A DNA stretch of 64,000 bases, taken from positions 1-64,000 of the forward strand of contig JBHLLP010000004.1 in NCBI GenBank assembly GCA_048885525.1. Direction: 5' to 3'. The position numbers and the translations under genes are program-made. Shown here piece after piece: positions 12,759 to 19,065 of the stretch. Source of the DNA: Candidatus Hermodarchaeota archaeon (lineage in GTDB: Archaea > Asgardarchaeota > Lokiarchaeia > Sigyniarchaeales > SOKP01). Under the pieces are notes generated by a model, which worked only from the letters and a program-made list of their open reading frames with translations, ran no database searches and was not told the DNA's origin. Every line of letters starts with the position of its first letter. Position 1 is the stretch's first letter.

Positions 12759-12911
12759 GTGGCCCCAGTTGATAAAGAACTACAAGAAGAAATTAAAAAG
12801 GGCGTTACTCTTCAAAAGGTCGATGAAGCAGAGTTGAAAAGAAGAGAAGAAGAGAAAAAGAAACGTATGGAAGAATTAGAAAAAGTTAAAGAAGCCTTAG
12901 GAGAGAAATAA
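12759..12911 (+). CDS. 50-aa WH2-motif-like microprotein, not in ORF track
   Basis: GTG..TAA ORF MAPVDKELQEEIKKGVTLQKVDEAELKRREEEKKKRMEELEKVKEALGEK; AGGTG upstream, TATA-like element near 12680, T-rich tract downstream. Confidence 0.7.
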   Translation: MAPVDKELQEEIKKGVTLQKVDEAELKRREEEKKKRMEELEKVKEALGEK

Positions 12912-15275: not shown

Positions 15276-15899
15276 ATGAGCCCTATAATTACACACGAAG
15301 ATGAATTAATTTTAGCGAAGACCGAGAGGGATCTTGTCTCACAATTTAAGAAATTAGCTAAAGCGCAAAGTGCGCTTATAAGTTCTCAAAAAAAGTATGC
15401 TGAAAATATTTCGAAAGCAAATAATATTCGAGAAATGTTAAATCGAACGTTTAGAGATGTTTTAAAACAGATGCAAACTCTTGCTCGAGAACATAGATCA
15501 AATATTAAAGATGAGGAAGTAAACTTATATAAACAAATAATCCAAAAAAATGATGATTACATTAAAGCTAATAACAAATACATGAATGCAATTAAAGATC
15601 TTGCTGTTCAAAAAGAATATTTAGTTCAAAAAAAGGAAGAATTTGTCGATGCATTATCGGAAGTTGCTGATAGAAGATCCACAGTAATAAAAAAAGCATT
15701 AGATGCGGAAAAAGCGAAAAATAAATTAATAGACGGTGACAAATTAAACATCCTCGACCAACAATTAAGTGATATTCAAAGAGATTTTGATAGAGCTCGA
15801 GATATATTAATAAAAAAAATAAAACAGTTTAATGAAGTAAGAGATGAAATTAATGCTCTATGGATTAAACTGAAAGATACTATTGTAGAATTAAGCTAA
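15276..15899 (+). CDS. all-helical coiled-coil protein, BAR-domain-like
   Basis: 207 aa of long amphipathic helices; RRSTVIKKALDAEKAKNKL..DKLNILDQQLSDIQRDFDRARD resembles the BAR helix2-helix3 turn. Confidence 0.5.
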   Translation: MSPIITHEDELILAKTERDLVSQFKKLAKAQSALISSQKKYAENISKANNIREMLNRTFRDVLKQMQTLAREHRSNIKDEEVNLYKQIIQKNDDYIKANNKYMNAIKDLAVQKEYLVQKKEEFVDALSEVADRRSTVIKKALDAEKAKNKLIDGDKLNILDQQLSDIQRDFDRARDILIKKIKQFNEVRDEINALWIKLKDTIVELS

Positions 15900-16027: not shown

Positions 16028-16498
16028 ATGTGTGCTGAAGAATTTGCAAGCTTTTTAGACAGTACTCGAAAAGCACCTTTAGAAGAGAAGTTAAATGCAT
16101 TTGGCGATATAATTGAAAAGATAATGTCAATTGTCCTAAGGATTCCCGATTTAGTTGATCAATCACTTAGCGCTGTAAATGATAAGGTATCGAATTTACA
16201 AAATCAAATAAATTCTCTAAATAATCAACTTACATCAATTCAATCTAGATCTGCAGGTGGTCCATTAGCACAGGAATCATCAGCAACCGGTCCTGTAGAA
16301 GCACGAACACCTGGAATTCCATCTGGAGGCCCACCCGGAGGTCCACCTCCACCGCCACCAGCAGGTCCTCCTGGAGGTCCAAGAGGTCCTGGTCAAGTTC
16401 CTGCTCCGGGTCGCCCAGCAAGTCCTGTTTCCCTAAGAGGGGCAATAATGGGAGAGCTTAAACAGCTATTTGCTAAGAGAAAGAGTCAATCAGGCTAA
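16028..16498 (+). CDS. coiled-coil / polyproline / C-terminal amphipathic-basic helix protein
   Basis: N-terminal heptads, GGPPGGPPPPPPAGPPGGP, C-terminal LRGAIMGELKQLFAKRK. Confidence 0.8.
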   Translation: MCAEEFASFLDSTRKAPLEEKLNAFGDIIEKIMSIVLRIPDLVDQSLSAVNDKVSNLQNQINSLNNQLTSIQSRSAGGPLAQESSATGPVEARTPGIPSGGPPGGPPPPPPAGPPGGPRGPGQVPAPGRPASPVSLRGAIMGELKQLFAKRKSQSG

Positions 16499-16695: not shown

Positions 16696-18345
16696 TTGGA
16701 TGCTACGAAAGATATATCCTTAAAAATTCCAACAGTTAGGGTAGTTCATGATCTGCAACGACAATTGCTTGAAATGACTTCTTTTTTGAGGGTTGTCAAT
16801 AATTATTATAAAAAGAAAGCAAATCTTCATTTAAGTGAGGATTATTTAAATCAGAAAGATTCTTTTAATTTTCCAGACAGTATCATACTCTTTGAAGCTT
16901 GGATGTATTTAGGTATTCGTGCACTTTTCCCCCGTGTTGTACTTCAATTTCAATTCCCTGGGTTTTTAAGAGGCGAAAGAATAAGAAATATATTTCAATT
17001 TATTTTTTCCACTTCACGAGGTTTTGGTTTTCCCATTTATTTTGGACCGGAATTCTATCATTATAGATTTAAATTAGCAAAGATTTTTGATCCTTTATTA
17101 AAATGGGTTTATACGGTATCTCACCGAGCGAATCAAGCAATTGTTGTAGGAAATAAACGTTTAAAATCTAAAAGACATCATCCAGGAGAGTTTGAATCTG
17201 TTATAATATCAGAATATGATACTAATGAGTATAAAGGAATCGATACTATTTTGCATGGATATTTTAAAAATACAGCAAAACCTTTAGGTAAATTTTCTTC
17301 ATTGGGAGATTTACTCCAAAATTCTACGTTTAATTATTCTATTGGTGATCATGCAATGAAGATTGAAAAAAATGGTGCGAAGATAATATTGAATCTCCGC
17401 TTAATTAACCATGATACTATCGTTAAAAATTATGATATTGACTTCCATTCTTATGTTAGAGCTCTGTTGAATACAAATAAATTATTAAATCAAAAAATTG
17501 AATTCTACCAGGAAAAAAGAAATAATCTCATAAGCAATTTAAAGAAGATTGATAAATTTAAATTTAGACTGGAGCGATCCAAGCACTCTGCAAAGGAATT
17601 TGCTAGGATATCTCAAAAACTCTCAAAAAAATATCCAATAATAGATAGATATGACCATTATAAGACTTTATTAGAAAAAATTAGAGTCATGTTATTCACT
17701 ACACCAATTTATATGCATACAATCCATAATTCAAAGGAATACTATAATTATTTACCGCTCTTAAAAATAGAAAGAAATAATTCTTTTAAATTCAAACACG
17801 AATCAACAAATTCAATTTTATTATCATATATTAAAAATTATGAAAAAAAACACAAGTTTAATTTTGAAGAAGAAGAGGTTGTACATAAATTAAAGCAATT
17901 ACAAGATAATATGGGAAAAATGTGGTTATCGTTCAAAGAAAAACAATTTAATTTTGCATTAGAAAAATTAAATGAATTATCATGTCTTGTTATTGATGAT
18001 AAGAATTATATGAAGAAAGTAGATGAGCTTTTGGATACACTTCTGCCAATTATAGCAATATATGAAATTTTTAACAGACCATTATTTGAATCAGTTTATC
18101 CCGAATCTATTCCTCAGATTAAAAGACCTGGAAACTACATTGCCCGTTTTATCGCTTCAAAATATAATCCTATAGGTACAAATTTAATGAAACTATTTAA
18201 TAGATTAGCATTTCAAAATTGGAGTTATTTTATATTAAAAAAGGGATTGAATCGTAAAGAATTTTTTAATTATCTTTTAAGACTACCAATTTGGAAACAC
18301 ATACCCGCATATGTAAAAGAAAGAATATTAAAGCAAAATAGTTAA
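16696..18345 (+). CDS. hypothetical protein
   Basis: 549-aa ORF, no motif recognised. Confidence 0.75.
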   Translation: MDATKDISLKIPTVRVVHDLQRQLLEMTSFLRVVNNYYKKKANLHLSEDYLNQKDSFNFPDSIILFEAWMYLGIRALFPRVVLQFQFPGFLRGERIRNIFQFIFSTSRGFGFPIYFGPEFYHYRFKLAKIFDPLLKWVYTVSHRANQAIVVGNKRLKSKRHHPGEFESVIISEYDTNEYKGIDTILHGYFKNTAKPLGKFSSLGDLLQNSTFNYSIGDHAMKIEKNGAKIILNLRLINHDTIVKNYDIDFHSYVRALLNTNKLLNQKIEFYQEKRNNLISNLKKIDKFKFRLERSKHSAKEFARISQKLSKKYPIIDRYDHYKTLLEKIRVMLFTTPIYMHTIHNSKEYYNYLPLLKIERNNSFKFKHESTNSILLSYIKNYEKKHKFNFEEEEVVHKLKQLQDNMGKMWLSFKEKQFNFALEKLNELSCLVIDDKNYMKKVDELLDTLLPIIAIYEIFNRPLFESVYPESIPQIKRPGNYIARFIASKYNPIGTNLMKLFNRLAFQNWSYFILKKGLNRKEFFNYLLRLPIWKHIPAYVKERILKQNS

Positions 18346-18361
18346 AAAAGAAATACGAATT

Positions 18362-18940
18362 TTAAAACTCTAAAAATCCAGGGTCATCAAAAATATCATC
18401 AATCTTTCTTTCTTTCTTAATTTTAGTTTCACTTTCTGCAAATAAAGATTCTTCATCAGTCCGAACACCGCGTTCTAATTCTTCAGTATCAAGTTTCAAT
18501 AATGCATCTTTTTCAAGGCGTTTAAATTCTTCAGCTTTCATCTTCCAATCATTAACTTCATCCAAATCAACATCTTCTTCATCTAGTAAAATTGCAGCTT
18601 TAGTTTTACAAAGATCTGATAGAATAGAATAAGCTAAAGCAAGTTCTCCCCATTCGTGGTCTTTCTTTAATCTTTGTATCCTTCTTTCTAATCTTTGTAG
18701 TTCTTGATCAGCATAATAGATATCAATAAAATCTCCAAAAGCATCAACAGGTTCTGAAATTGAATTTATTAAAACTTCTTTTGTTAAATCACAATTTCCA
18801 CATTTCACTGTGGCAAAAGCTCCTTTCTTTTTAAGATCTGTCACTTTGACACTTTTTTCTCCACATTCCGGACATGTGAAGATCTTTGGAACACGCTTCA
18901 CACGTTTTGGGGTTACTTGTTTACGTTTTCTCCTTCCCAG
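18362..18940 (-). CDS. elf1: transcription elongation factor Elf1 with C-terminal helical/acidic extension
   Basis: GRRKRK...KIFTCPECG...KCGNC...EPVDAFGDFID; start placed at CTG 18940 (GGTGA upstream gives canonical MGRRKR); ORF track uses TTG 18952. Confidence 0.85.
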   Translation of the reverse strand: MGRRKRKQVTPKRVKRVPKIFTCPECGEKSVKVTDLKKKGAFATVKCGNCDLTKEVLINSISEPVDAFGDFIDIYYADQELQRLERRIQRLKKDHEWGELALAYSILSDLCKTKAAILLDEEDVDLDEVNDWKMKAEEFKRLEKDALLKLDTEELERGVRTDEESLFAESETKIKKERKIDDIFDDPGFLEF

Positions 18941-19065
18941 TAGAATCACCAAATTATTTCCTTAAAAATGAGTATAACTTCATTTAGAATAAAAAGAAAT
19001 AAAAACTAAAATATTTTTGCTTTTAAGTGAAAACTTTTAAAGGAATTTAGTAAAATTTTTTAGCA

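Follow-up and report, generated by a model that had tools for sequence, protein, structure and literature searches.

What does a small archaeal protein do that joins a coil, a polyproline stretch and a basic helix at its very end, and does this layout make it a regulator of actin? The question is raised by a gene on the first 64,000 nucleotides of a Candidatus Hermodarchaeota contig (the window). Here, an uninterrupted reading frame on the plus strand (16028..16498, stop codon included) runs from an ATG start and encodes 156 residues (P0001). An earlier note on this DNA had compared the product to a minimal Ena/VASP or WASP-family factor, and the anatomy on which it based that comparison (coil, polyproline, basic end helix) is borne out by the sequence of the open reading frame (ORF) and by an AlphaFold2 model built on an alignment of 27 homologues. 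The model begins with a short N-terminal helix (residues 2-15; 16031..16072, +), which is also marked by conservation and carries a nearly invariant E5-F6 pair within an AEEFAxFL motif. It is followed by a single long amphipathic helix (residues 18-75; 16079..16252, +) with a pLDDT above 90 over residues 30-70, which is additionally delimited by its periodicity and by an hhalign alignment to an Arf-like GTPase tail. The family-averaged hydrophobicity of residues 18-75 repeats every 3.5-3.6 residues with a power of 9.0-10.3, compared to 0.8 +/- 0.8 after shuffling of the alignment columns, and none of 5000 shuffles reached the real value; such a period is compatible with a coiled coil, but also with a packed amphipathic helix. 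Next comes a Pro/Gly/Ala-rich linker (residues 76-133; 16253..16426, +), predicted to be disordered over residues 77-133 with a pLDDT below 50, which includes the polyproline core GPPGGPPPPPPAGPPGGP (residues 101-118; 16328-16381, +). The chain ends with a basic amphipathic helix (residues 136-155; 16433..16492, +), defined by the model (pLDDT about 82) and by alignments, which contains RGAIMGELKQLFAKRK at residues 137-152 and the family-invariant residues E143-L144-K145-x-L147-F148. Its moderate amphipathicity (hydrophobic moment about 0.6 in an 11-residue and 0.4 in an 18-residue span) and net charge of +4 would be compatible with lipid binding in the manner of the terminal, basic-flanked membrane-targeting helices of the MinD/FtsA type, but are not diagnostic of it. 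A Foldseek search of the model against the PDB returned no match, and in a profile search of the PDB the long helix matched coiled coils only, with trimeric designs and adhesin stalks at the top.

The three-part feature is real and under selection. Chance is a poor explanation, because the linker has a G+C content of 61% compared to 28% for the whole window, because runs of at least five prolines are found in just 9 of the 21,952 six-frame ORFs of the whole genome, and because the protein has numerous homologues: a word-index search returned 195 relatives of 140-185 aa, all named 'hypothetical' and labeled as Promethearchaeota/Loki, Thor or Hod, and an exhaustive profile search of 1.84 billion proteins yielded 452 representatives at 50% identity. 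Searches of the 156-aa protein against Pfam and NCBIfam gave nothing above threshold, only sub-threshold coiled-coil noise, the ESM Atlas contained the protein's own clusters only, all of them unnamed Asgard, and we found no description of the family in the literature consulted. Judged by these searches, the protein is a conserved, unannotated and so far undescribed Asgard family. A profile search of the phylum detected the gene in 235 of 400 Asgard genomes. In the window's own family (f1), the stand-alone gene is present in 123 of 134 genomes; in several other families it was all but missing from the same search, with 1 of 31 genomes in f13 and none of the 12, 22 and 12 genomes in f15, f16 and f18, respectively. 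Named carriers are Candidatus Lokiarchaeum ossiferum, MK-D1, Odinarchaeum yellowstonii LCB_4 (WEU40005.1) and Jordarchaeales, with lineage names that rest on a few exact look-ups and, for L. ossiferum, on the neighboring protein UYP45915.1.

Conservation is distributed unevenly along the chain. Among 27 close members, there is next to no variation in the first 46 residues or in the 25 at the C terminus, and P108-P110 and P115 are invariant. Across 20 members from the whole phylum, only E143, L144, K145 and L147 never vary, and E5 and F6 hardly do. The conservation of the C-terminal helix across Asgards, put forward in the earlier note as a check, is thus found: no block is better conserved than the end helix (majority fraction 0.69), with E-L-K-x-L invariant phylum-wide. 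The long helix divides into an N-terminal half (residues 15-46) that is conserved in sequence and a C-terminal half that consists of a variable heptad pattern; the majority fraction is 0.52 for the N-terminal half and lowest, at 0.37, for the heptad half. Linker length varies between 35 and 72 residues and proline content between 15 and 41%. Runs of at least five prolines occur in most of the examined Loki-order members and in Odin, and the orthologues of L. ossiferum and MK-D1 feature 2-4 tandem PPPPPG[RS] runs; in the linker comparison across the family, such runs are missing in Jord, f21 and most f31 members. The strict retention of P108-P110 in the 27 close Loki-type stand-alone members hints at a role beyond spacing, and a pure spacer role does not explain it.

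A new lead comes from a second gene of the same genome, which encodes a 412-aa Arf/Rag-like GTPase (G000 C3:38039-39304 (-) = L054:5043-6278:-). This protein has a helical N-terminal extension of roughly 130 aa and a tail, ending in ...ARLQVLNELKDLFGKRRR, that is homologous to the whole 156-aa protein. The family profile matches the GTPase in two collinear stretches (hmmsearch E 5e-8), and hhalign places residues 15-57 of the 156-aa protein on residues 320-362 of the GTPase (probability 94%, E 1.2e-7). All parts of the unit are found in collinear order, namely the EF-type helix, the long helix starting with P-x3-K-[VL]-x2-[LF]-[GA]-[DE]-[IV], the linker and the E-L-K-x-L-[FL] helix, and the segment equivalent to AEEFAxFL is kept in GTPase and HEAT fusions as QFAKYI / AEFMTAL. 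By homology, then, the whole unit is the C-terminal tail of Arf/Rag-like GTPases. In both forms, three homologous helices follow one another in the same order, first the short one, then the long one and finally the one with E-L-K-x-L-F; in contrast to the GTPases, the 156-aa protein has no G domain and features a longer polyproline linker, whereas the linker of most f1 tails is short and almost free of polyproline. The tail of the 412-aa GTPase is common to 374 proteins, every one of which has a G domain of the Arf/Gtr1-RagA type, and its relatives are 74-97% identical among the matches listed. Searched with this tail, the fused GTPase form is present in 121 of 134 f1 genomes and 3 of 14 genomes of f3, and is confined there. 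MK-D1 (Promethearchaeum syntrophicum) has a divergent fused GTPase (QEE16620.1) with a PPPPPPP run and a ...SELRKVF ending. The tail of Asgard Arf GTPases is not described in PMC11914678 or 10.1101/2024.02.28.582541.

Further fused forms were found among the best 150 of the 452 representatives. They include additional Arf/Rag-like GTPases with a SLRGAIMGELKELF-type tail motif (P0313, P0369, P0384), one of which terminates in the identical motif SLRGAIMGELKELFAKKK, a HEAT-repeat protein (P0387) and an LRR protein (P0382); a Ras-like GTPase (P0360) and a 491-aa protein contain the long helix only. None of the ten fused forms examined in this set is a gelsolin or profilin fusion. The gelsolin-domain ORFs of the genome are likewise not among the family-profile matches listed (top 30, up to E about 0.3), and three of them gave hhalign probabilities below 1% when compared to the family. 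A word-index search for longer proteins with the exact C-terminal 40 residues found none.

What, then, is the purpose of a unit that exists both as a gene of its own and as the tail of GTPases? As it forms the end of Arf/Rag-like GTPases and is attached to HEAT and LRR proteins as well, we read it as a localization and assembly device. The 156-aa protein may be a free-standing copy of a portable module for oligomerization, tethering and docking, with a membrane or a membrane-bound receptor as the most likely target, a reading to which we assign a probability of about 0.45. The periodicity and conservation of the long helix suggest self-association or pairing: the short helix and the amphipathic helix of roughly 58 residues would bind to themselves or to the equivalent helix of other module carriers. 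The Pro/Gly/Ala-rich spacer of 35-72 residues would mainly serve as an extended tether, free to drift in length and composition and with true polyproline runs in the Loki order and Odin only, and the basic C-terminal helix with its invariant E-L-K-x-L-[FL] motif would dock on a receptor common to all carriers, most likely at the cytoplasmic face of the membrane or on a membrane-bound partner. Many small GTPases are brought to membranes by just such a combination, a linker with a basic amphipathic end behind it, which is why a membrane or membrane-bound receptor is ranked first. The invariant Glu by the hydrophobic face and the phylum-wide near-invariance of the helix would be unusual for a plain in-plane lipid anchor and argue for a protein receptor. 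The stand-alone protein could thereby act as a small oligomeric scaffold, or as a competitor for the docking site of the other carriers. Further observations count against a docking module: the strictness of the polyproline, the patchy distribution of the gene among Asgards, and the low-confidence AlphaFold2 model of the Arf-like GTPase, whose tail has a pLDDT of 30-57, so that no docking site can be read from it.

Such an arrangement would not be without parallels. The tails of Ras, Rho and Rab GTPases consist of a hypervariable region and an anchor, and that of Rac1 is proline-rich and polybasic. Like them, the Asgard module places a flexible, partly proline-rich spacer and a basic, putatively membrane-directed end at the C terminus of a small GTPase; unlike them, it has no CaaX or lipidation signal, contains an additional conserved, possibly pairing helix, and also exists as a separate gene, so the likeness is one of logic only. 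In FtsZ, a variable disordered linker leads to a short, strongly conserved, helix-forming C-terminal peptide that docks on partner proteins. The Asgard module shares the variable disordered linker ending in a short, strongly conserved helix, but its sequence is unrelated and its carrier is a coiled coil or a GTPase. The identity of the E-L-K-x-L-F receptor would show the cellular destination of many Asgard GTPases, HEAT and LRR proteins. If it turned out to be lipid only, the finding would be more modest and come down to an archaeal counterpart of the anchors on GTPase tails.

How does this compare to the actin factor originally envisaged? In that proposal, the coil would oligomerize, the polyproline would load profilin-actin and the end helix would bind actin in the manner of a WH2 or F-actin-binding (FAB) helix, so that the protein elongates or bundles filaments like a minimal VASP or formin. 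The order of coil, GPPPPPP-type runs and basic amphipathic helix suits such a role, the tandem PPPPPG[RS] runs of L. ossiferum and MK-D1 resemble an FH1 region, and the source genome contains actin-family and gelsolin genes, with a protein of similar layout encoded upstream of an actin-related gene in the source genus. There would also be a vacancy to fill, as the published actin regulators of Asgards are profilins and gelsolins only, and their machinery for nucleation and elongation is still described as missing (PMC9433394). However, membership in the Ena/VASP or WASP family is not borne out. No EVH1/WH1 domain was matched by Pfam in P0001 or in 20 diverse members, and the modeled N terminus of P0001 is a single long helix. 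Profiles of WH2 (PF02205), VASP_tetra (PF08776) and thymosin matched neither these 20 members at E<=10 nor anything in the genome, the WH2 model being one that gives chance matches in control genomes. The profile of the end helix retrieved a single designed peptide from the PDB and no other chain, VASP included. Compared by eye with the quoted VASP FAB string, for which no profile exists, only two leucines (L136 and the invariant L144) and a later basic cluster coincide, and the invariant E143 and K145 have no counterpart. The acidic tail with a conserved Trp that marks the Arp2/3-engaging CA region of WASP/WAVE proteins is absent from the 156-aa protein. Ena/VASP proteins have comparable building blocks, namely an oligomerizing helix (putative in the Asgard protein), a basic amphipathic helix and runs of the GPPPPP type, but arrange them the other way round: in the Asgard protein, the coil comes first, and profiles find neither an EVH1 domain nor a WH2-like GAB. 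As far as sequence comparison goes, the protein resembles VASP and other actin regulators of animals in its layout only, and no homology was detected. Two small subunits of actin-nucleation complexes also surfaced in the searches and were judged to be coiled-coil noise: BRICK1 of WAVE (E 0.4 in a profile search), and CCDC53 of WASH, matched by one fused member at 21 bits, below the cut-off, and by none in the source genome.

The polyproline itself cuts both ways. The GPPPPP motif, which had been singled out as the profilin-loading motif of VASP, is present as GPPGGPPPPPPAGPPGGP and shows conservation within the Loki order, yet the family as a whole does not share it: it is missing in Jord, f21, most f31 members and the f1 GTPase tails. 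The accompanying caveat on Loki profilins agrees with published assays, in which neither Loki nor Odin profilins reportedly bound the polyproline of VASP; the ligand in these assays was a human VASP peptide only and never a native tract (PMC8410842). It is thus in the Loki order and Odin, whose profilins reportedly did not bind the human peptide, that the polyproline is strongest. Also against an actin factor, the gene is missing from many actin-bearing Asgard families and, among the fused forms examined, gelsolin and profilin do not appear.

Proteomic data for L. ossiferum (10.1101/2025.11.30.690169, Supplementary Table 2) speak to the same question. Locus tags in this organism increase along the genome coordinate, with actin and two gelsolins as anchors, and GNAMCCOK_02218 has a mass of 24.01 kDa, compared to 24.03 kDa computed for the Elf1-like gene just upstream of the orthologue; GNAMCCOK_02218 is therefore taken as this neighbor and GNAMCCOK_02219 as the inferred orthologue. 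The latter was quantified in 16 of 16 proteome samples with a mean log2 of 18.47, compared to 21.69 for Lokiactin (10.1101/2025.11.30.690169). It is not among the covered rows of the Lokiactin co-immunoprecipitation (co-IP), which extend down to a log2 ratio of -1.06, with 841 further rows of the table outside this set (10.1101/2025.11.30.690169); this is weak evidence against a stable association with actin. Taken together, we consider a VASP- or formin-like elongation factor unlikely. Somewhat more doubtful still is a bolder version, a pre-eukaryotic platform for actin assembly in which an oligomeric coil would present several polyproline arms and the end helix would insert into the hydrophobic cleft of actin or anchor the assembly to the membrane. 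If it were true, the protein, together with profilin and the WH2-like repeat proteins of these organisms, would supply the elongation or nucleation machinery described as missing in Asgards.

An adaptor role had been offered as the alternative, and an adaptor whose end helix binds another partner does fit better than a VASP/WASP factor. One version ties the protein to the GTPases themselves: its N-terminal helix would pair with the helix of the GTPase tail or bind the G domain, its end helix would bind a protein hub, and the protein would regulate or compete with the GTPases. In its favor, the long helix is conserved beyond its heptad pattern in the N-terminal half, which is the part matched by the GTPase tails; the module is met again on Arf/Rag-like as well as Ras-like GTPases; the invariant E-L-K would suit a protein interface; and both forms are near-universal in f1 (stand-alone 123/134, fused 121/134). 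But the stand-alone protein persists in L. ossiferum and most other lineages, where the GTPase tail query detects no fused GTPase, so the small protein cannot depend on the fused GTPase, and AlphaFold2 gives no confident contacts for the tail. We regard this direct partnership as improbable, on a par with the VASP-like factor. Far less likely is the other version, in which the protein is an ESCRT ligand whose end helix acts as an MIM1-like motif for an MIT domain, for example that of Vps4, and whose proline region is MIM2- or PTAP-like. The MIM1 consensus is [DE]xxLxxRLxxL[KR]; the spacing I140-x3-L144-x2-L147 followed by basic residues agrees with it, as does the position of the motif at the extreme C terminus behind a flexible region. 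However, the invariant Glu143 stands where MIM1 has its defining Arg, RPASP differs from P[TS]AP and lacks conservation, P0001 and the 20 members gave no Snf7 or MIT-related profile match, and no lineage examined has an ESCRT gene as a neighbor. The free-standing docking module remains our preferred reading, and as a small, abundant and phylum-wide protein, it is a candidate link between small-GTPase signaling, membranes and possibly actin.

Does the genomic neighborhood point to a partner? In f1, the gene lies in a fixed order of genes for a GNAT protein, a 50-aa ORF, Pelota, a radical SAM protein, a 207-aa helical protein, the 156-aa protein, sometimes a 549-aa ORF, and Elf1. The 207-aa all-helical protein (15276..15899, +), a conserved upstream neighbor within this family-level clade, adjoins the 156-aa gene in 30 of 30 f1 loci and, with inverted order, in genome G132. 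It had been described as BAR-like, a label that finds no support: it has no family match, and its hits were two sub-threshold FCH matches and designed bundles. In L. ossiferum, MK-D1 and genome G135, the Elf1-like gene is directly followed by the 156-aa gene and the 207-aa gene lies at another site, and in Odin, Jord and f31 loci the neighbors are unrelated metabolic genes. As neighbors differ between lineages, gene context yields no functional partner.

Several genes of this neighborhood deserve a mention in their own right. The 549-aa ORF between the 156-aa gene and Elf1 (window 16696-18345, +) has no Pfam or NCBIfam match; it is found in about half of the related loci and missing in the rest, an indel within an otherwise fixed synteny. 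The Elf1-like zinc-ribbon protein (window 18362-18952 (-), L038:5237-5857:+) is extended at its C terminus by a long, acidic coil. In L. ossiferum, the orthologue of this zinc-ribbon protein, GNAMCCOK_02218 (UYP45915.1), is enriched in the Lokiactin co-IP (log2 1.36, adjusted p 0.034; 10.1101/2025.11.30.690169).

Elsewhere in the genome, the protein of similar layout mentioned above has 231 aa (G000 C45:15068-15766 (-) = L073:7069-7764:-) and consists of an N-terminal helix, a long GPPKAP-type linker and a C-terminal SLRDEMLDELNRLKKIM helix. Its homology to the 156-aa family is marginal (E 0.003). The gene lies upstream of those for a PIG-L-type deacetylase and an actin-related protein, and the adjacency to the actin-related gene is kept in the same genus only. 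The source assembly (G000) itself has no close Lokiactin orthologue, the best match being 41% identical (C45:12991-14076). Nine of ten genus relatives have one with 81-93% identity (mostly 91%), often at contig ends, and its absence here probably reflects a gap in the assembly, not the loss of the gene. Two single-gelsolin-domain proteins (G000 C3:8935-9534 and C21:44089-44931) carry one or two terminal helix motifs of the form TY[DE]ELCWL.AE. These proteins are unrelated to the 156-aa module (hhalign probability below 1%), and the motif may be the 'X' region of GelX-type proteins. Finally, in five family members of the 50-aa ORF (window 12759-12911, +), L8, I12, G15 and L18 are invariant, together with K20-V21. 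These residues are spaced as in a WH2/beta-thymosin motif, even though nothing in the genome matches the WH2 model of Pfam. A unit of roughly 45 aa from this ORF recurs in about ten tandem copies of the LLxEIxxGxxLKKID type in a 505-aa ORF of L. ossiferum (L086:1333-2850, -) and a 492-aa ORF of MK-D1 (L087:1474-2952, -), a layout that recalls the tandem-WH2 nucleators.
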